From assembly GCA_965247075.1 (NCBI GenBank), contig CBDFGK010000001.1, positions 1,322-65,321 on the forward strand: 64,000 nucleotides of DNA, read 5' to 3'. The stretch is from Halieaceae bacterium (GTDB taxonomy: Bacteria; Pseudomonadota; Gammaproteobacteria; Pseudomonadales; Halieaceae). Both the position numbers and the translations under genes were made by a program. The notes beneath the pieces were generated by a model. The model ran no database searches, was not told where the DNA came from, and saw only the letters and a list, made by a program, of their open reading frames with translations. Below are positions 36,392 through 44,722 of the stretch, one piece after another (positions within the stretch are counted from its first letter, which is position 1; every line of letters begins with the position of its first letter).

Positions 36392-37963
36392 GTGTTAAAA
36401 AACCGGCGACTGAAGAAACTTGAGCGAGAGATGAATCGGGCGGAGAGCTATGCCCAGTGGTATGAGCGGGCCGAGGCGCACGACGAAGCCAGTGGCATGT
36501 TGCGTTGGCGCCAGGTTGATCAGACCAACCTCTATGATTATGCCTCCATACGCCGCCGCGTAGATCGCCTGCGCAGCCTGCGAGCCAGGGGCGATGATGT
36601 GGGCCTGTTGTTCACCCTCAATGAGGGCATTCACGGCAATATGGGTGGCATGGGCAGCAGTAAATTGCACCAGCAGGCCCACGCCGGCACCAAACTGCTG
36701 ATTGAAGACTATGTCGATGAAATCGTCGACGCGCTGCGGTACTTGGCCGAGCTGAAATCAGACCATATTTCGGTGGCGGACAAATTGGACTTTTTTTACC
36801 GGGCCAATCACTGCTATGGGCGTTCGGCCTTAATGCTCAGTGGCGGCGGTGTTTTGGGTTTTTACCATCTGGGTGTGGTCAAGACCCTGCTGGATAACAA
36901 ACTGTTACCCCGGGTTATTTCCGGTTCCAGTGCGGGATCGATGATTGCCGGAGTGCTGGGAACCCACACGGATGAGGAACTGGTGCAGTTTTATGACCCC
37001 AGCCACGTGCATTTTGAGGCCGAGAAAGAAGCGACGGTGTTTGATCGAATGTTTTTTGGCAAGCACCCCGGCATGGATGTGCACGACGTGCAGGCCGTGG
37101 TGGAGCGCCTAGTGCCGGACATGACTTTTCAGGAGGCCTACCAAAAAACCGGCCGCCAGATCAGCATCACGGTAGCCCCGGCAGAACCCCAGCAAACCTC
37201 ACGTCTATTGAACGCTATCACCTCGCCGAATGTCTATTTGCGCAGTGCCATCATGGCTTCCTGTGCTGTGCCGGGGGTGTTTCCGCCGGTGATGCTCAGC
37301 GCCAGGAATGTTTATGGTGATTTGCAACCCTACCTGCCAACACGCAAATGGGTAGACGGTTCAATCAGTGATGATTTGCCGGCTAAGCGCCTGGGGCGTT
37401 TGTATAGCACCAATCACTCTATCGTCAGTATGGTCAATCCCATTGTATTGCCATTCCTGCACAATGGGCTGGGCGGTAGCCGTCTGTTAACCGCCGGAGG
37501 TAAGCTCGGCATCGAAGTCACCCGTGAGGCCCTCAACGTCTACCGCCGGCAGGCGCACAAGTACGGCGCTGACTGGCTACGCCTGAATTGGCTGGTAAAT
37601 ACGATACACAGCTTGCTGGATCAGAATTACAGCGGCGATATTAATATAGTGCCGCGCTTTCGCTGGTACAGCCCCACCAAGATCCTCTCGCATATCACTG
37701 AAGAAGAAATGATGCTGTTGATGAAAGAGGGTGAGGCTGCGACCTGGCCCGAATTGCGGGCTATAGACGTCTGCACCAAAATCAGCCGGGCGCTGGATGA
37801 TATTCTTGAGTACTTTGAACGCGGCGACCTCAAGCCAATACGCGCCGCCAGGCGCCGCCCCAGGCGGCCTGCCGTTAAAAAGGCCGCTGCCAGTAAAAAG
37901 GCAAAACCTGTAAAAAAGCCTGATGTGGAGCTTGCCGCTGCGGTTTCTACCAAGGCGGCCTGA
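36392..37963 (+). CDS. Patatin-like phospholipase (DUF3336-type N-terminus) with a Lys/Ala-rich C-terminal tail
   Basis: The oxyanion motif is GGGVLGFYHLG, the nucleophile is GSSAGS and the Asp is in VDGSISDD. The start is GTG with an AGGAG SD. Confidence 0.85.
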   Translation: MLKNRRLKKLEREMNRAESYAQWYERAEAHDEASGMLRWRQVDQTNLYDYASIRRRVDRLRSLRARGDDVGLLFTLNEGIHGNMGGMGSSKLHQQAHAGTKLLIEDYVDEIVDALRYLAELKSDHISVADKLDFFYRANHCYGRSALMLSGGGVLGFYHLGVVKTLLDNKLLPRVISGSSAGSMIAGVLGTHTDEELVQFYDPSHVHFEAEKEATVFDRMFFGKHPGMDVHDVQAVVERLVPDMTFQEAYQKTGRQISITVAPAEPQQTSRLLNAITSPNVYLRSAIMASCAVPGVFPPVMLSARNVYGDLQPYLPTRKWVDGSISDDLPAKRLGRLYSTNHSIVSMVNPIVLPFLHNGLGGSRLLTAGGKLGIEVTREALNVYRRQAHKYGADWLRLNWLVNTIHSLLDQNYSGDINIVPRFRWYSPTKILSHITEEEMMLLMKEGEAATWPELRAIDVCTKISRALDDILEYFERGDLKPIRAARRRPRRPAVKKAAASKKAKPVKKPDVELAAAVSTKAA

Positions 37964-38434
37964 TTATCTGTCCCGGCCACCGGCTTCGCCATATACCGCC
38001 TCGGCGAGCCCAGTGCGGAGGACGTTCGCGTATAGGAGCGAATTCATAGTTTCTAGGTTGCTAGTGTTCTCCTTATCAACCAGGTCGATAACGTACTCTA
38101 AAGGAGTGCCCTCGTACTGATGTGCGGAATGCTCCACAAAACGATCGTACTTCTGATGAAGACTTGCAACTAACGTCCTGAGGGAAACATGTCTCGATTG
38201 AATTGAGGCAGATTTCGCTTCGAATTGACGCAAGGCAGTTTGCAACTTCCGTCGGTTAGAGAGAACTCGCGCATTGTGATTCCGCACCTCTTGATTGTGC
38301 TTATTGATGGCGCGATTCACATTCTGATTCTGCGTTCTAACGGCTTGGTTATACCGATTAATAGCGTTGCGTTTTTTTTGCTGAATTTGGCGCAGCTGGC
38401 TACGCAATTGAGCTGACGAGACTCGTCTGACCAT
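37964..38434 (-). CDS. Hypothetical Asn/Gln/Arg-rich coiled-coil protein (island gene)
   Basis: 156 aa with a GGAGGG SD. The N-terminal half is roughly 11-residue repeats (AINRYNQAVRT QNQNVNRAINK HNQEVRNHNAR). Its stop abuts the patatin stop with 0 nt spacing. The last ~25 codons are GC-rich like the host flank. Confidence 0.55.
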   Translation of the reverse strand: MVRRVSSAQLRSQLRQIQQKKRNAINRYNQAVRTQNQNVNRAINKHNQEVRNHNARVLSNRRKLQTALRQFEAKSASIQSRHVSLRTLVASLHQKYDRFVEHSAHQYEGTPLEYVIDLVDKENTSNLETMNSLLYANVLRTGLAEAVYGEAGGRDR

Positions 38435-38472
38435 GGCGATTGCCCTCCAGTTAGTGGAAAACGAGCGCGTAG

Positions 38473-38625
38473 CTAACGCTGTTTGCTACGCCCTGCGTCC
38501 CCGCGGCAGGGATTGGGGATGGACTCTTTTTGTGTTCTAGACGGGTAACGCTTTGCATAACTCTCCGTGACGAATTTTCCTGTTACTGAGCTCCGGCGTC
38601 CGGTGTAACTTTTTTTGCTAGGCAT
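38473..38625 (-). CDS. Small basic hypothetical protein (50 aa, below the ORF-track cutoff)
   Basis: The product is MPSKKSYTGRRSSVTGKFVTESYAKRYPSRTQKESIPNPCRGDAGRSKQR. A strong SD (GGAGGA) lies 8 nt upstream. The SGKFVT..YAK..P..T motif recurs in small phage/plasmid proteins, from memory. Confidence 0.5.
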   Translation of the reverse strand: MPSKKSYTGRRSSVTGKFVTESYAKRYPSRTQKESIPNPCRGDAGRSKQR

Positions 38626-38641
38626 TTTTCAATCCTCCGCT

Positions 38642-38673
38642 TTAGACAATCAGTATCTATATATAGTGTCTAA
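38642..38673. promoter_or_regulatory. Perfect 7-bp inverted repeat TTAGACA-N18-TGTCTAA in the divergent control region
   Basis: Read directly from the sequence. It sits just upstream of the SD of the 50-aa gene. ATAGTGT occurs twice nearby (38663 and 38695). Confidence 0.4.
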
Positions 38674-38757
38674 TCAAGCTAAAATATACTATAAATAGTG
38701 TTATGAGCCGATTTGTGCTGGGTTTATAAAGAAGTGTGAATTAACATGTCGACTCTC

Positions 38758-38792
38758 TTGACATTAATCTAACACAATATTATTGTTGTGTT
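38758..38792 (+). promoter_or_regulatory. Candidate sigma-70 promoter (TTGACA-N17-TATTGT) overlapped by the inverted repeat AACACAA-N8-TTGTGTT
   Basis: The -35 is at 38758-38763 and the -10 at 38781-38786. The predicted TSS is within a few nt of ATG 38794, and no SD is visible. Confidence 0.35.
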
Positions 38793-39273
38793 TATGATTC
38801 CCGTACTCGTTAATATTACAGGCGCACCCTGGAAAGTCCTTCCTCCTGGCGTGCATTTCGCAACCTTGGGAGAAGTAGGAAATATCTACGGCCACAACGC
38901 TACGCGCAGGTGGCAGTTCGATGGGCTTTTGGAGGCCTGCGCGGAGCTCCAACAAGCGGGCTGTGGCACTCTCTACTTAGACGGGAGTTTCGTAACAGGC
39001 AAACCAAGACCTGGAGATTATGATGCTTGCTGGGACCCTAATGGAGTGTCAGATGGACTTCTTCACCCGGTGTTTCTCGTATTCGACAATAAGCGAGAGG
39101 CACAAAAGAGGGAGTTCTTGGGTGAGTTTTTCCCCTTTGGGCTCCCTGCTAAACCCGGGATGTCATTTTTAGATTTTTTCCAGAAAGACCGTTACTCGGG
39201 AGAGGCAAAGGGGATCATAGCGATTGATTTAAATACTGAGACGTTTGGCAAGGCAACAGGAGTCCAGTCATGA
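38788..39273 (+). CDS. Minimal nucleotidyltransferase-fold protein (DUF6932-like)
   Basis: LPPGVHFATLGEV is present at the N-terminus. G-S-x10-D-x-D occurs in LDGSFVTGKPRPGDYDAC. The probable start is ATG 38794. The stop overlaps the next start (ATGA). Confidence 0.75.
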   Translation: MFMIPVLVNITGAPWKVLPPGVHFATLGEVGNIYGHNATRRWQFDGLLEACAELQQAGCGTLYLDGSFVTGKPRPGDYDACWDPNGVSDGLLHPVFLVFDNKREAQKREFLGEFFPFGLPAKPGMSFLDFFQKDRYSGEAKGIIAIDLNTETFGKATGVQS

Positions 39274-40532
39274 TTTACAATGAGAGGCAGTATAAGATCA
39301 CAGGCAGAGAGATCGAAAACCTGAATGCTTCGCTAGAAGCACTGCAAGAAACTGACCAACCTGATTGGCTAAAGAAAGCTCAACTTGAGGCGGTTAAAAG
39401 CCAAGTGTCAGAGCTAGCAGCCCAAGTTTTAGAGTATGAGCTAATCAAGGAAGGGCGAGTTCAGTTTACAGAGTGTTCTGATCTAACTCTGTTGCCCAAG
39501 ATTCTGGTTCAATCACGAATTGCCCGAGGGCTGTCGCAAAAAGAGTTAGGTGAAAGCCTAGATCTGACCGCACAGCAGATTCAAAGATATGAGGCGAGCC
39601 ACTACATGGGAGCAAGCCTTTCACGTCTTATCGATATTGCTCAGATTCTGGGGGTTACTCTCAAGGAGGCTTGGGGTGGAGAGAGAGGGGCAGAAGGTGC
39701 GGTCTTTGTTTGGCAGGAGCCTGATGCCGTGAACTGGGGTGCCTTTCCCGTGAAGGAGATGACGAAACGGGGATGGCTGGATTTTGATCACGGGCAAGCA
39801 CCGGGTGATGCTGTTAGAAATTACTACATGGAAGCTGCGGGAGAGCAGTTTGCAACGGCACTTCATCGGAAAAAGTTCCACGGTGCAAATAAACCCAATG
39901 AATACTCATTGCTTGCATGGCAGGCGCGAATCCTCGAAATAGCTCGACACGAAGTTGCGTCGGGTATGATCGGTGGGTATGAGGACAGAGACGACTGGGT
40001 ATCGGAACTGGTATCGCTGTCTACAAGTGAAGAAGGACCACTTCTCGTAAAGGGTTTGCTGGCTGAGAGAGGCATTGTTTTGGTAATTGAGGAACATCTT
40101 TCTGGCACCTACCTTGATGGCGCTGCAATGCTGCTTGATACCGGCAATCCTGTTATTGGCCTTACTCTCAGGTATGACCGTTTGGATAGTTTCTGGTTTG
40201 TCTTGTTTCATGAATTGGGCCACGTGTTTCTTCATCTTTTTGAGTCATTGGAAATGGATTTTTTCGACGAGGAGGGTGGAGAGAACATGGATGTTATCGA
40301 ACGCGAGGCAGATGAGTTTGCTCTAAATGAGTTGATCCCATCGGAAGACTGGAACCAGTGTATATCCAGGTTTTCGATATCAGAGGAGTCGGTTCTAATT
40401 GATGCAGAAAATCTCAATATCCATCCGGCAATAATTGCTGGGAGAATTCGCAAGGAATCCAATAACTTCACAGTTCTCAGTGGTTTAGTGGGGCAGGGAG
40501 CTGTCCGAGCATCGTTTGGTGACTCCAAATGA
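39270..40532 (+). CDS. XRE-family HTH + ImmA/IrrE (M78) zinc-metallopeptidase fusion protein
   Basis: The HTH spans aa ~78-131 (IARGLSQKELGESLDLTAQQIQRYE). HELGH lies at aa 314-318 (nt 40209-40223), with a downstream EREADEFA Glu. The N-terminal ~65 aa are predicted coiled coil. Confidence 0.9.
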   Translation: MIYNERQYKITGREIENLNASLEALQETDQPDWLKKAQLEAVKSQVSELAAQVLEYELIKEGRVQFTECSDLTLLPKILVQSRIARGLSQKELGESLDLTAQQIQRYEASHYMGASLSRLIDIAQILGVTLKEAWGGERGAEGAVFVWQEPDAVNWGAFPVKEMTKRGWLDFDHGQAPGDAVRNYYMEAAGEQFATALHRKKFHGANKPNEYSLLAWQARILEIARHEVASGMIGGYEDRDDWVSELVSLSTSEEGPLLVKGLLAERGIVLVIEEHLSGTYLDGAAMLLDTGNPVIGLTLRYDRLDSFWFVLFHELGHVFLHLFESLEMDFFDEEGGENMDVIEREADEFALNELIPSEDWNQCISRFSISEESVLIDAENLNIHPAIIAGRIRKESNNFTVLSGLVGQGAVRASFGDSK

Positions 40533-41605
40533 AAATTGATTTCAAAACTTATGTGCCAATTCTTAAATGGAGAATGGGCGAATATCAGGCTCTACATCGA
40601 TTGAGTGACAGAGCTAAGGAAGCAATCATCCCCTTATTACTTATTCCTCCAATCGAGTATGATTTTGAAGAAGAGAGAATGAAGAGGACTGTCGATGAAC
40701 ACATTCTTCCTTTTCCTAAGAAGTATGATGACAAGTGGGGAAAAGGAAAAGCGCTGATTGATATTCATGAGAGCCTCGATCTCGCATCTGTGGAGGGTGG
40801 GAGATTTGCTCTGGAACACGTTTTCGATGATCTAAGAATGCGAGAATGTGCTGCTATTCCAGTCGCACGCATGTCTCGGACCAAAGCCTACACGAATCAA
40901 GTACAGCGTATTGCCGAAGTGGACGAGCGGGGTGTATGTTTAAGAGTTGGCCTTACTGAACTGATGCGGCCAGACTTTAACAGTCGCTTGAAAGATATCT
41001 GCATGGAACTAGGGGTTGAATTATCCGAGATTGATCTTGTGCTGGACCTGGGCGAACCAGAGAATTTCGAGCCCATAGACGTCTTCGCTAAATTAATCCT
41101 CGGGAGGATGAGGAGCATAAATGGTTTGGACGACTTTCGGTCACTCGTGGTTGCAGGGATGTCTCTAAAGCTTTCGGAAGTGAAAAAGCCTGGAGGTGAA
41201 GTCCCTCGATTAGAATGGGCGTTGTATAAGGCAATGCTTAAAGTGCTAGGGGAGACCCGAGTACCCAGCTATGGAGATTATACGGTAGAAACGCCTAAGT
41301 TTTCAGAAATGGATATGCGCCTTCTAAACCCAGCCGGAAAAATTGTGTATACCTGTGACGACACGTGGCTAATTCCGAAGGGAGGATCTTTTCGACGCGA
41401 CAACAGCCAAATGACTGGGCATTGTGCAGAGATTATAAAATCCGGTCACTACCTGGATATAAGCTTTTCCTTCGGCGATAAAAGGATTAATGACACCGGC
41501 AATGGTACAGCAAGTTGTGGAAACCAAACTACATGGAAGCAGGTAGCAGTGAACCATCATATTGAGAAAGTTGTAGACCAACTCGCCAATTATCCCGTCG
41601 CATAA
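40529..41605 (+). CDS. Beta-protein family protein (satellite phage P4 Beta / sce7725-like)
   Basis: The N-terminal signature YVPILKWRMGEYQALHRLSDRAKEAIIPLLLIPP is characteristic of the family. The ATGA start overlaps the upstream stop. Confidence 0.8.
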   Translation: MKIDFKTYVPILKWRMGEYQALHRLSDRAKEAIIPLLLIPPIEYDFEEERMKRTVDEHILPFPKKYDDKWGKGKALIDIHESLDLASVEGGRFALEHVFDDLRMRECAAIPVARMSRTKAYTNQVQRIAEVDERGVCLRVGLTELMRPDFNSRLKDICMELGVELSEIDLVLDLGEPENFEPIDVFAKLILGRMRSINGLDDFRSLVVAGMSLKLSEVKKPGGEVPRLEWALYKAMLKVLGETRVPSYGDYTVETPKFSEMDMRLLNPAGKIVYTCDDTWLIPKGGSFRRDNSQMTGHCAEIIKSGHYLDISFSFGDKRINDTGNGTASCGNQTTWKQVAVNHHIEKVVDQLANYPVA

Positions 41606-42164
41606 GAAACTTCTTGATGTAGCCCGATAGCTCTCTGTGAGATATCAGTTCTGAGAGATTCTCGTACAGAGTCCGTTTAGAGCCCTTGAGTTTGTCTTTG
41701 CTAGCGCCTAGCTCACTGAGTAAGTCTACAGCCTCCTTACGCCAGAGAAGATGAGCCATAGAGTTAAACTCAACTTCCGGGTTGAGTTTTGGAGATCTCA
41801 ACGTCGTAAAATTTACTGCTCCTTTAGAACCCTTTTTAGCAAGAATTAAGCCGCACCAGCTGGGCGCGTTGTCCATCAGAACATCAATATGGTTAGGAGC
41901 AGAGACAATAGTTATTTTCTCAAGGCTCTTTTTGTATTCGGCGAATTGTTGGGGAAGCCGTGTCAAAGTATCTTTGGAACTCTTAATCTCATAACCATGG
42001 ATAAATCCGTTTAGAACGGCAATATCAATCCGCTGCCTACCATGTGCAAGCCCTAGTTCGTTTATGACCATCGCTTTGGGGTTACAATGGTATCTCTTCA
42101 GAATCTTCCTATGGAGAGCATCCCTGATCTCCTGGTCGGATGATTCCTGAGCTGATAATCGCAT
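41529..42164 (-). CDS. sce7726-like protein with a PD-(D/E)xK nuclease-type core
   Basis: IRDALHRKILKRY...VINELGLAHGRQRIDIAVLNGFIHGYEIKSSKDTLTRLPQQ contains a D...E-x-K arrangement. It is convergent with the Beta-protein gene and overlaps it by 77 nt. Confidence 0.75.
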   Translation of the reverse strand: MRLSAQESSDQEIRDALHRKILKRYHCNPKAMVINELGLAHGRQRIDIAVLNGFIHGYEIKSSKDTLTRLPQQFAEYKKSLEKITIVSAPNHIDVLMDNAPSWCGLILAKKGSKGAVNFTTLRSPKLNPEVEFNSMAHLLWRKEAVDLLSELGASKDKLKGSKRTLYENLSELISHRELSGYIKKFLMRRDNWRVGLQLSQYDGSLLPASM

Positions 42165-42432
42165 AGCGCTAAACTCTCACCTGTTGAATCCTATACATCT
42201 TCGCCGATCTTCATTGCCACGCAGAATATCCGCAATAAATTGCTCGGATTCAAGTTAAACTTTCTGTACTAAATCGCACTTTCGGGTTTCCTGGGGGAGG
42301 GCGGCAATATAGGTCTTCAGGTGCCCCCATGTTTCTTGGTCGAGAAATCGTTCCTGGACGGTTGCTCCTGGCGAGGATTTTCAATTACCAGTGGCGCATC
42401 GACGGTAGCTGGTGCCCATCCATAAATGGATG

Positions 42433-42467
42433 TTTTTTTAAAAAACACCCTGTTCCAGCCACAGGGT
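42433..42467 (-). terminator. Candidate Rho-independent terminator (minus strand)
   Basis: The stem is ACCCTGT/ACAGGGT with a 7-nt loop. On the minus strand GTTTTTT follows it. Confidence 0.4.
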
Positions 42468-42616
42468 TCCGGTTCACAACTCTACCGGCTTATAAGTGGC
42501 CATACATTGACCGGGATGGTCACCTTATGACCCATTACCCCGATTTTATGCCACAGATTACTGCTGCACAGCCCATAAGAGTACAGATATTGGGTTATCT
42601 GGGCCAACCCTTGTGT

Positions 42617-42976
42617 TTACCCGGAATCGAGCCGCGCCAAACGCACCAGGTTGTAGCTCAGAACCGAAGACCAGACATAAGCCTTGCAGCCATCAAACCC
42701 TTTCCAGTTTGCCTTCGTTGCACCAAAGGCTCGTTTTAGTTCTGAGATATTTCCTTCTACCCCCGCCCGAAAATTGCGCAATTGAGTAAACGTTTTCGAT
42801 GTAACGCCCATGGCGTGAAGCGACAAACCGACCGGCTTATGGAAGACCACACGCTTAACACCCAGCCCCCTTCCTTGTGTCACATTTTCCTGGCTGGCAT
42901 AGCCACCGTCAGCCACGACCGAATGCGGTAGGCGGTGCAGCTTCGACCGATGAAAATATAGCACTGGCATCAACAA
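42617..42976 (-). mobile_element. C-terminal fragment of a DDE transposase (IS4/IS5-superfamily type)
   Basis: ADGGYASQEN and the RAGVEGNISELKRAFG...YVWSSVLSYNLVRLAR tail are present. The N-terminal two thirds are missing. Confidence 0.65.
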
Positions 42977-42984
42977 ACTGCTTG

Positions 42985-43194
42985 ATCCTGCCCACCAACA
43001 GTGGACACCTCACCAAGCGCTCAAAGGGCTGCCTTTCCAGAGATGGCATGCTGCACATGATGTTCAAACCGGGTATGTGCGCCGAGAAAAAATGGCGCCG
43101 CCTGCGCGGGTTTAACTACCTGGCGAAGGTGATTACGGGAATCGAATGTAAAGATGGAATCGAGGTGATAAAAGTTGACCGGGTCGCCGCTTGA
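42985..43194 (+). mobile_element. C-terminal fragment of an IS256-family (mutator-type) transposase
   Basis: TKRSKGCLSRDGMLHMMFKPGMCAEKKWRRLRGFNYLAKVITGIECKDG matches the conserved IS256 C-terminus. It abuts the other IS fragment. Confidence 0.65.
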
Positions 43195-43489
43195 ATCAGG
43201 TGTTGAAACACCACTTTTGACAATAACTCCATCGAACTGCACCTCATGCAGGTTGCTCTGCCTGATGCCAGTGTGCACCACTATGAACCACTGGTTGGCG
43301 GCCTGACACTCCCCGGTCCGGATGACCGTCATGTGCCGGCTGCTGCAATTAAGTGCGGTGCCCTCTGTCATGCGGTGTTTCCTCTGTTGGCTGTTGATTC
43401 CGGTAGATCTTTCAACAGAGCACACCGCATCTTATTTTTCAGGTCATACACCAGAAACCATCATAGCTCCACCGGCACAGGTATCAGGC

Positions 43490-44722
43490 CTACATGCGCT
43501 CGATAATAATGGCGGGCGCCATACCGCCGCCGGCACACATGGTTACCAGGCCGAACTGCTTGTCGGCGCGCTCCAACTCATCAAGCACGGTGCCGATCAG
43601 GATGGAACCGGTCGCCCCAATCGGGTGACCGAGTGCCATAGCGCCACCGTTCACATTGACCTTTTCCCGGTCCAGGTCCAGATGGCGAATAAACCTTTCC
43701 GTAACCACGGAAAAGGCCTCGTTGATTTCGAACAAGTCGATATCCGCAACGCTCAAGCCAGCTTTTGCCAGGGCCTTTTGAGCCGCTGGTACCGGTGCAT
43801 TCAGCATCAGGGTAGGAGAATCGCCCATATTACACACGGCAACAATTTTTGCCCTGGGCTTCATACCGTGCGCCTTGGCGTACTCTGGTGAGGCCAGTAA
43901 TACCGCGGCGGCCCCGTCTACCACACCGGAGGAATTGCCGGCGTGATGTACGAAATTGATCTCGAGATCGGGATACTTTTTCAATATCAGGCTGCGGAAA
44001 GTGGTGCCGGCCTCATCCAGCGGGTAGTCGACCAGGGCGGCGAAAGAGGGCTTTAGTTCTGCCAGGGTCTCCATGGTGGTCTGCGGGCGTGGAAACTCTT
44101 CATGATCCAGTGCCAGTGAGCCGTCCTCGTTATAGACCGGTACCAGTGACTTGTCGAAATGACCGTTGGCAATAGCGTGGGCCGCGCGCTGTTGTGACAG
44201 CACAGCCAGGTTATCCACCGCTTGGCGGTCAATTCCTTCCAGGGTGGCAATGGCGTCGGCACAAACGCCCTGGTGAGGCTGAGGGTGAACCTCTCGCAAA
44301 CGCAGGTTGTCACTGTCGATAAACGGAGACAACCCCTGGATCTGGCTGTAATGCGACATCATCTCGGTGCCGCCACCGATACACAAATCCTCCATGCCGG
44401 CCATAATGCTACTGCCGGCGATGTTGACAGTGGTAATGCCTGAGCCACAAAAACGGTCCAGGGTGACTCCGCTGGCGCGCACGTCGTAACCGGCATCCAG
44501 GGCCGCCATGCGACCCAGGTCGCCGCCCTGCAGACCTTTCTGCTGACTGGTTCCCCAAACGATGTCATCGACATCGGCTGTATTGAGGTCGTTGCGTTCG
44601 GCAATGGCCTTGAGCACAGTGGCACCCAGGTGTTGGGGGTGTACATGTGCCAGTGCACCTTTACCCACTTTTCCAATACCGCGAGGAGTGCGGCAGGCAT
44701 CAATAATCCAGGCTTCAGACAT
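43490..44722 (-). CDS. Acetyl-CoA acetyltransferase / 3-ketoacyl-CoA thiolase
   Basis: Motifs are MSEAWIIDACRTPRG, the Cys nucleophile in DRFCGSGI, NGGAMALGHPIGATG and CAGGGMA. The start was moved to ATG 44722. Confidence 0.92.
   Translation of the reverse strand: MSEAWIIDACRTPRGIGKVGKGALAHVHPQHLGATVLKAIAERNDLNTADVDDIVWGTSQQKGLQGGDLGRMAALDAGYDVRASGVTLDRFCGSGITTVNIAGSSIMAGMEDLCIGGGTEMMSHYSQIQGLSPFIDSDNLRLREVHPQPHQGVCADAIATLEGIDRQAVDNLAVLSQQRAAHAIANGHFDKSLVPVYNEDGSLALDHEEFPRPQTTMETLAELKPSFAALVDYPLDEAGTTFRSLILKKYPDLEINFVHHAGNSSGVVDGAAAVLLASPEYAKAHGMKPRAKIVAVCNMGDSPTLMLNAPVPAAQKALAKAGLSVADIDLFEINEAFSVVTERFIRHLDLDREKVNVNGGAMALGHPIGATGSILIGTVLDELERADKQFGLVTMCAGGGMAPAIIIERM

Follow-up and report, generated by a model that had tools for sequence, protein, structure and literature searches.

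In the 64,000-nucleotide stretch of Halieaceae bacterium contig CBDFGK010000001.1 analysed here (the window), positions 38794-42164 hold a cassette of four intact genes in the order DUF6932 gene (A), Xre-type helix-turn-helix (HTH)/M78 peptidase gene (B), Beta gene (C) and, convergent with these, a cII/sce7726 gene (D). Judged by homology and gene order, the cassette is a mosaic relative of the anti-phage systems PD-λ-2 and gop-β-cII with a new front-end gene, and we propose that it is probably a toxin-antitoxin-like anti-phage (abortive-infection) module built around the HTH-protease B. This proposal draws on homology, on the tested precedents of PD-λ-2, gop-β-cII and RosmerTA, on synteny, modularity, invariant residues and predicted folds, and on the intact open reading frames (ORFs) of the cassette amid decayed surroundings. 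The original prediction for this locus had called it an undescribed anti-phage system. A literature search indeed found no mention of DUF6932 or of the four-gene combination, but the parts belong to the validated PD-λ-2 and gop-β-cII; ‘undescribed’ was an overstatement, since the C-terminal two-thirds of B and the Beta family are shared with PD-λ-2 and the Beta/cII pair with gop-β-cII.

The genes of the cassette lie as follows.

38788-39273, plus strand: gene A as given by the ORF map, 161 amino acids (aa) from GTG.
38794-39273, plus strand: gene A in its likely extent, 159 aa from ATG; DUF6932 protein, candidate minimal nucleotidyltransferase.
39270-40532, plus strand: gene B, 420 aa; Xre HTH and M78/ImmA-IrrE Zn-peptidase.
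40529-41605, plus strand: gene C, 358 aa; Beta protein (P4 β family).
41529-42164, minus strand: gene D, 211 aa; cII/sce7726 family, convergent with C.
41529-41605: overlap of the 3’ ends of C and D, 77 nucleotides (nt), from the ORF coordinates.

All four ORFs were present where they had been predicted and in the arrangement claimed, and the A/B and B/C junctions, read in the sequence, are the ATGA start/stop overlaps reported at 39270-39273 and 40529-40532. The predicted length of 161 aa for A holds for the ORF from GTG 38788, but since the consensus of the DUF6932 family opens with MIP, the start is probably ATG 38794. The G+C content (GC) of positions 37964-42164 was 46.7%, with flanks at 55.8% and 58.1%. 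Outside the island, windows of 4.2 kb had a mean GC of 56.1% (standard deviation 1.3, minimum 53.5), so that the drop in the island exceeds 7 standard deviations. The low-GC island is therefore real, but its interior is in the mid-40s (44.5-50% for the individual cassette genes) and not in the low-40s as had been estimated by hand. The interval first given for the island, 37964-42164, also needs amendment. It does contain the four genes and is low in GC, but it encloses a fifth ORF of 156 aa (37964-38434, minus strand), and the foreign low-GC block continues beyond it to about 43480, with GC climbing back above 0.55 near 43250-43500.

Co-occurrence of the four genes was examined in a census of 80 Beta loci (36-51% identity to the window Beta) from species-representative genomes, which were scanned with self-built component profiles. 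Four closer Beta sequences served as the queries, an alignment with P4, Rac and Rhizobium sequences having proved too divergent. In 73 of the 80 loci, A, B and C were strictly syntenic and followed by a convergent D, the same layout as in the window. The other seven loci were cut by contig ends or visibly disrupted, one of them (L053) being without cII. The census spans more than 10 phyla and includes Alpha-, Beta- and Gammaproteobacteria, Nitrospirales, Bryobacterales/Terriglobia, Chloroflexota, Rhodothermales, Saprospiraceae, Spirochaetales, Binatia, Longimicrobiales and Hydrogenedentales; such strict conservation over so many phyla makes the cassette a good experimental candidate. Neither the window nor any of the 80 loci matched a gop profile. 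The same four-gene order was found around B homologues with 82% identity (a metagenomic element resembling an integrative and conjugative element, ICE), 57% identity (a Pseudomonas chromosome) and 54% identity (a Sinorhizobium conjugative plasmid), and the flanks of these three loci were unrelated. What lies beside the cassette varies among copies, with a Type ISP restriction enzyme in some and CoiA-like or ordinary housekeeping genes in others; the cassette is thus an autonomous mobile module.

Two plasmids carry incomplete versions. On a Rhizobium phaseoli plasmid (L011, 3489-5932) there is a divergent B-Beta pair with no detectable DUF6932 or cII, and this partial variant and L053 may be natural ‘deletion experiments’ on dispensable genes. 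On the clinical NDM-1 plasmid pNDM-AP_882 of Acinetobacter pittii (L010, 3025-6915), the cassette adjoins Tn7-like tnsD/tnsE and is interrupted after 66 Beta residues by an IS30-family element that precedes blaNDM-1, leaving A and B without C and D.

The presence of the cassette on conjugative plasmids and ICE-like elements could also mean that it is a plasmid or ICE addiction (post-segregational killing) module, which would stabilise its carriers and have no dedicated anti-phage role. HTH-M78 proteins are hub antitoxins of classical toxin-antitoxin networks, and plasmids and prophages often carry two-gene HigB-B pairs that have no Beta. We consider this unlikely, however, because the cassette is also found by itself among chromosomal housekeeping genes, where an addiction module would have nothing to stabilise, and both tested related systems, PD-λ-2 and gop-β-cII, protect against phage. 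Four conserved catalytic proteins also exceed the need of an addiction module, although addiction and defence roles are compatible.

The family assignments made in the original prediction (DUF6932, HTH and M78, Beta, and sce7726) all passed profile searches. Protein B has Pfam matches to HTH_3 (residues 83-132, 1.5e-9) and Peptidase_M78 (residues 288-369, 3.1e-8), and its layout comprises an N-terminal helical region with the Xre HTH (residues ~1-135), a middle domain (~150-260) and the M78/ImmA-IrrE Zn-peptidase with HELGH at residues 314-318. H314-E315-x-x-H318, H322, D333 and E344 are invariant in 37 sequences that include PD-λ-2 B proteins. The PADLOC model PD-Lambda-2_B matched B at 1.1e-79 (267 bits), but only over residues 149-417, whereas true members match over their full length, as in the canonical PD-λ-2 loci of two viral contigs (L101 and L109; PADLOC scores of 1e-27 to 1e-30 for A, 570-610 bits for B and 450-504 bits for C). 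Similarly, the identity of B to canonical PD-λ-2 B is 41% and limited to residues 154-419, and the N-terminal 150 residues are not homologous. B also matched the PADLOC CapP model and multiple RmrA models (RmrA 7e-14 to 1e-3).

The homologue family of B is large and includes full-length members of ~420 aa. B proteins partnered with HigB always align only from residue ~150 on, and many of them are without any Beta. On cyanobacterial and Roseovarius plasmids, on the other hand, a DUF6932 gene (1.6e-42 and 6e-24) is followed by the gene of a 487-aa protein with a helical/HTH region and a weak M78 match, and the first 132 residues of this protein are 35-44% identical to the N-terminus of the window B. 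A Fremyella plasmid (L180, 2061-5411) and a Roseovarius plasmid (L181, 2028-5411) thus carry a second cassette of DUF6932, the 487-aa protein, DUF4186 and radical SAM genes, which has the A gene and the B N-terminus in common with the window cassette but differs in its downstream module (DUF4186 and radical SAM). Since the N-terminal helical/HTH part of B co-varies with A and the protease part with the downstream module, B is, on this pattern of homology, a two-part adaptor whose N-terminal part follows A and whose protease part follows the module downstream.

Protein A matched Pfam DUF6932 at 2.1e-30. Across 36 cassette homologues, residues G66-S67-x9-D77-x-D79, E113, R40 and K141 do not vary, and in a broader set of 42 sequences G, D and P are invariant and S and the second D near-invariant. 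The motif had been read as G-S-x10-D-x-D; the actual spacing is G-S-x9-D-x-D. It satisfies the Polβ-type motif hG[GS]-x9-13-D-x-[DE] with a further conserved carboxylate, and A is a candidate minimal nucleotidyltransferase. PADLOC PD-Lambda-2_A models gave no match to A even at E<=10, with the A genes of L101 and L109 as matching controls, and PADLOC gop matched neither A nor B. On these profile searches we rejected A as a divergent HigB or gop. A occupies the slot of HigB in PD-λ-2 and of gop in P4. Clustered at 50% identity, the relatives of DUF6932 give about 1,300 groups, and with few exceptions they are stand-alone proteins ~150 aa long; the cassette gives DUF6932 its first functional context.

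Protein C matched Pfam Beta_protein over its full length (7.9e-69). Among PADLOC models it matched PD-Lambda-2_C at 2.2e-51 and the gop-β-cII ‘beta’ model at 1.7e-9, the latter as a distant member. Y8, E18, P35, P111, D173, D250 and H344 are invariant in the cassette members and also in P4 β and PD-λ-2 C. The AlphaFold2 model of C (predicted local distance difference test, pLDDT, 94.6) has a divergent (β/α)8 TIM-barrel-like fold, and its best matches in the PDB were generic TIM barrels with template modelling (TM) scores <=0.41, endonuclease IV among many others; a profile search of C against PDB sequences returned nothing meaningful. In the model, D173 and D250 are placed at the C-terminal ends of β-strands, where the active sites of barrels lie, and this placement suggests that Beta may be an enzyme rather than a passive antitoxin. 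The original prediction had also treated sce7725 as Beta-like. The NCBIfam model sce7725_fam gave no match at E<=1 to the window C, P4 β or PD-λ-2 C, and its best match, to the β of prophage Rac-SA53, had an E of 0.099 over 35 residues; the equivalence of sce7725 and Beta is thus unsupported.

Protein D matched NCBIfam sce7726_fam at 6.9e-46 (156 bits vs a cut-off of 70) and the PADLOC model ‘cll’ of gop-β-cII at 1.6e-27, and its homologues bear Pfam PF26915 Phage_P4_cII. E36, R45, D47, E59-x-K61 and D65 are invariant in 39 sequences including P4 cII. The AlphaFold2 model of D (pLDDT 89.4) shows an αβββαβ core and a helical C-terminal domain, with D47 on β2 (strand 44-51) and E59-x-K61 on β3 (strand 55-61). 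Foldseek searches of the PDB with this model found 3dnx (2e-4), followed by SfsA, Bax1, XPF and YaeQ, and the viral library BFVD yielded MmcB-like ‘DNA repair’ proteins (1e-5) and two full-length relatives (TM 0.69-0.74). Profile comparison of D with PDB sequences gave nothing meaningful. The PD-(D/E)xK core that had been read from the sequence of D is thus supported by the predicted model, the structure matches and the invariant residues, and D is likely to be nuclease-like.

The 3’ ends of C and D overlap in all 73 syntenic loci, by 32-80 nt (median 47) and always by 2 mod 3. The overlap is 41 nt in Rac-SA53, in the same phase, and there is none in P4. Since it is found in every syntenic locus, the C/D overlap is ancestral.

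Among M78 proteases, the IrrE, ImmA and CapP types are responsive to DNA damage. The match of B to CapP, one of these types, the closest folds of D (MmcB-like ‘DNA repair’ proteins, SfsA, XPF and Bax1), and the presence of endonuclease IV among the many barrel matches of Beta would fit a pathway that processes, repairs or modifies nucleic acids, in which the nucleotidyltransferase, the TIM-barrel enzyme and the PD-(D/E)xK nuclease would act on DNA or RNA and an Xre-protease switch (ImmR/ImmA or DdrO/IrrE type) would respond to stress. Any defence would then be aimed directly at foreign nucleic acid and would not be abortive. Such a pathway appears quite improbable to us. The TIM-barrel matches are generic at their low TM scores, PD-λ-2 behaves as an abortive-infection system in which B itself is toxic, and a patchy mobile distribution is ill-suited to housekeeping repair.

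Gene order, translational coupling, the catalytic motifs of A, B and D and the invariant residues of Beta are conserved among the cassettes. For the toxin-antitoxin-like anti-phage module that we favour, the following course can be envisaged. A would bind the N-terminal helical/HTH region of B, as is suggested by the change of this region together with A, and would keep B inactive, either through binding or through nucleotidylylation of B in the way of MNT antitoxins, while the HTH of B would autoregulate the operon. A phage cue might be sensed via Beta, a predicted TIM barrel with enzyme-like invariant acidic residues, or via the protease domain of B. The cue would activate the M78 protease, which would then cleave B or a partner, and the cleavage would free a toxic activity, be it B itself, the putative transferase of A, or the putative PD-(D/E)xK nuclease of D. 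The infected cell would arrest or die ahead of phage release. Each single step in this scheme is much less certain than the scheme as a whole.

A more far-reaching model is that Beta (as a TIM-barrel enzyme) and cII (as a nuclease) form an ancestral sensor/effector core common to a whole defence superfamily, for which gop-β-cII, PD-λ-2 and the window cassette would represent three front-ends. In the window cassette, DUF6932 would then be an active minimal nucleotidyltransferase and would control the HTH-M78 hub or Beta by covalent modification, much as in type VII toxin-antitoxin systems, and the conserved antisense C/D overlap would add regulation at the RNA level. We regard this model as speculative and rather doubtful. 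If it is true, covalent control by DUF6932 would be a logic not yet described for any defence system.

Several observations weigh against the abortive-infection proposal or limit it. The nucleotidyltransferase assigned to A has an invariant motif in its favour, but two profile searches of A against PDB sequences showed no link to nucleotidyltransferases and none of the 36 members of the A family had a secondary Pfam match to a nucleotidyltransferase family, so that the fold has neither a profile nor a PDB link. Since A is not homologous to HigB or gop, the neutralisation of B by A may not carry over to the cassette, where A could itself be the toxin. The PD-Lambda-2_C match of C is a family-level signal only, because the partner-less Beta of Rac-SA53 scores about the same as the window Beta on that model, and the window Beta is only 22% identical to true PD-λ-2 C. 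Canonical PD-λ-2 works without cII. Several copies of the cassette are located among housekeeping genes rather than in defence islands. Finally, since the census queries came from the same Beta clade, the census shows that this clade is locked to the architecture and not what share the clade has among all Beta proteins.

The surroundings of the cassette contain the following features.

37964-38434, minus strand: remnant of a pP_pnuc_1-family (‘pPIWI-associating nuclease’) gene, 156 aa, at the left island edge; not part of the cassette.
38473-38625, minus strand: 50-aa ORF (MPSKKSYTGRRSSVTGKFVTESYAKRYPSRTQKE...) outside the cassette, oriented divergently to A and with a strong ribosome-binding site (GGAGG).
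38758-38786, plus strand: sigma-70-like promoter candidate TTGACA-17-TATTGT, 10/12 consensus match, ending 7 nt before the ATG of A.
42279-42377, minus strand: tyrosine-integrase remnant, 33 aa, with 67% tblastx identity over 33 aa to the Phage_integrase gene after cII in the ICE-like locus L001.
42617-42976, minus strand: C-terminal fragment of an ISNCY-family transposase (transpos_ISNCY_1 1.8e-32, model positions 330-444 of 444; Pfam DDE_Tnp_1).

The window is colinear with L001 from 38033 to 42166 at 72% DNA identity (blastn), and in L001 the cassette adjoins integrase and TraG/topoisomerase genes. Since its neighbours in the window are remnants and the four cassette genes alone are intact, the low-GC island (about 37964-43480) is a horizontally acquired, decayed integrative element that retains an intact cassette. 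The integrase and transfer genes next to the L001 cassette, the integrase remnant that follows cII in the window, and the resemblance of B to ImmR plus ImmA could suggest that B is a fused ImmR-ImmA that serves as the immunity/induction switch of an integrative element, controlling its excision or transfer genes, with A, C and D as cargo. This is very improbable, since in the window the cassette is still whole although the element around it has decayed, many copies lack any integrase or transfer gene within 6-9 kb, and the four genes travel together with no conserved neighbour. The variable contexts largely exclude such a switch; likewise, B is not the lysogeny switch of any one element, a concern raised with the original prediction, because the flanking genes differ everywhere.

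The 156-aa ORF consists of the N-terminal ~134 aa of the 304-aa pP_pnuc_1 protein of L001 (phmmer 1e-48) and an unrelated tail, and it lacks the pP_pnuc_1 domain, which is at residues 155-286 in the L001 protein. We rejected it as a cassette component because it is a truncated remnant of a pP_pnuc_1 gene. The complete 304-aa gene of L001 has a TIR_2 gene as its partner, and the two look like a candidate defence pair of their own, which is ruined in the window. The 50-aa ORF is ~70% identical (tblastx) to a called 50-aa gene of L001 and L003 (L001 7202-7354; 1e-36). Nothing similar was found in the other 80 loci, and there was no Pfam or NCBIfam match. It was rejected as a fifth component because only the closest relatives have a counterpart, and it may belong to the pP_pnuc/TIR module.

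Upstream of A, the promoter candidate could yield a leaderless or near-leaderless mRNA of A, although promoter and terminator scans of the region gave site numbers no higher than in shuffled sequence. Between the divergent 50-aa ORF and A there are two 13-mers CTATA(T/A)ATAGTGT, 32 bp apart, which make up an inverted repeat as well (38657-38701). They look operator-like, but they are not conserved between loci, and we did not retain them as an operator. At the other end of the cassette, back-to-back terminator-like hairpins at 42417-42467, CATCCATAAATGGATG-T7 on the plus strand and ACCCTGTGGCTGGAACAGGGT-GT6 on the minus strand, lie between cII and the insertion sequence (IS) debris and may have served the lost integrase region as a bidirectional terminator. 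Two overlapping ORFs without a family match, 42877-43194 (plus strand) and 43021-43425 (minus strand), are probably more IS debris. Flanking direct repeats were considered as att sites and rejected, since only short repeats at chance level were present. On the left, a gene with DUF3336 and patatin phospholipase domains (36392-37963, plus strand) abuts the island, its stop codon adjoining the 156-aa ORF. Its matches to anti-phage and CBASS (cyclic-oligonucleotide-based anti-phage signalling system) phospholipase models were sub-threshold (E ~1e-3, far below the cut-offs) and its GC is host-like; the patatin gene looks like a resident and not a part of the island.

How does the cassette relate to known systems? 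PD-λ-2, from E. coli ECOR42, is an abortive-infection type of system with three genes (Vassallo et al. 2022, PMC9519451): a HigB-like A, a B that joins an Xre-HTH to a peptidase, and a C described as ‘related to a P4 phage antitoxin’. In that system B alone is toxic and A rescues, while C is dispensable for the rescue but required for defence against λvir (PMC9519451). Like PD-λ-2, the window cassette has a co-directional small A, an Xre-HTH/M78 B and a Beta-family C with coupled junctions, and the middle and peptidase regions of B are homologous, with the HExxH…E residues identical and invariant. Unlike PD-λ-2, it has a DUF6932 gene and not a HigB-like gene as A, the N-terminal ~150 residues of B are unrelated, and a fourth convergent cII/sce7726 gene is essentially always present in cassettes of the window type. 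There is no cII after Beta in L101 and L109. The tested PD-λ-2 clone could not have held a complete convergent cII, since its fragment ends about 390 bp past gene C. By the profile matches, in which A fails and B matches in part, the window locus is not a member of PD-λ-2.

The gop-β-cII system protects against λ and P1 (Rousset et al. 2022) and is triggered by the phage accessory protein orf184. In P4, the source of the system (Ghisotti 1990), the gene order is gop (plus), β (plus) and cII (minus), and P4 cII is labelled ‘sce7726 family protein’ in RefSeq and matches sce7726_fam at 2.5e-44. The window cassette and gop-β-cII share Beta followed by a convergent cII, in the same orientation as in P4 and Rac-SA53, the E…D…ExK residues of cII, a toxic or regulatory gene directly upstream of Beta, and an association with mobile elements with an integrase nearby. 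On the other hand, the window has no gop homologue and carries DUF6932 and HTH-M78 genes in its place, its Beta is only ~17-20% identical to P4 β, and the 3’ ends of its C and D overlap, whereas a terminator lies between β and cII in P4. No P4 genes were found near the window cassette, so that the locus is not a P4-like satellite hotspot. Without gop and outside the P4 hotspot, the window locus is not a member of gop-β-cII.

HTH-ImmA proteins have been described as hub antitoxins that can exchange their partners and for which a mechanism by HTH cleavage has been proposed (Ernits 2023). RosmerTA (Millman 2022; Ernits 2023) resembles the window cassette in that an HTH and M78 protein follows a small swappable partner gene in a toxin-first order. 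However, Rosmer has two genes, whereas B of the window type has an additional conserved middle domain, found also in PD-λ-2 B, and is tied to Beta and cII; moreover, the toxic component in PD-λ-2 was B and not A. Bare β/cII pairs, as in prophage Rac-SA53, are convergent with overlapping 3’ ends in the same phase and have no A or B genes.

Taken together, these comparisons single out two units of the cassette. The C-terminal part of B with Beta is common with PD-λ-2, and the convergent Beta/cII pair is common with P4 gop-β-cII. The cassette thus physically links two validated anti-phage systems, PD-λ-2 and gop-β-cII. It shows that the protease half of B goes with Beta and that the N-terminal half of B goes with a swappable A, either HigB or DUF6932, and it points to cII, a putative nuclease that was never part of the PD-λ-2 experiments, as the ancestral partner of Beta. 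Current defence-annotation tools would probably report only fragments of the cassette. Concrete, testable hypotheses at the level of single domains follow from the cassette for both known systems, PD-λ-2 and gop-β-cII.

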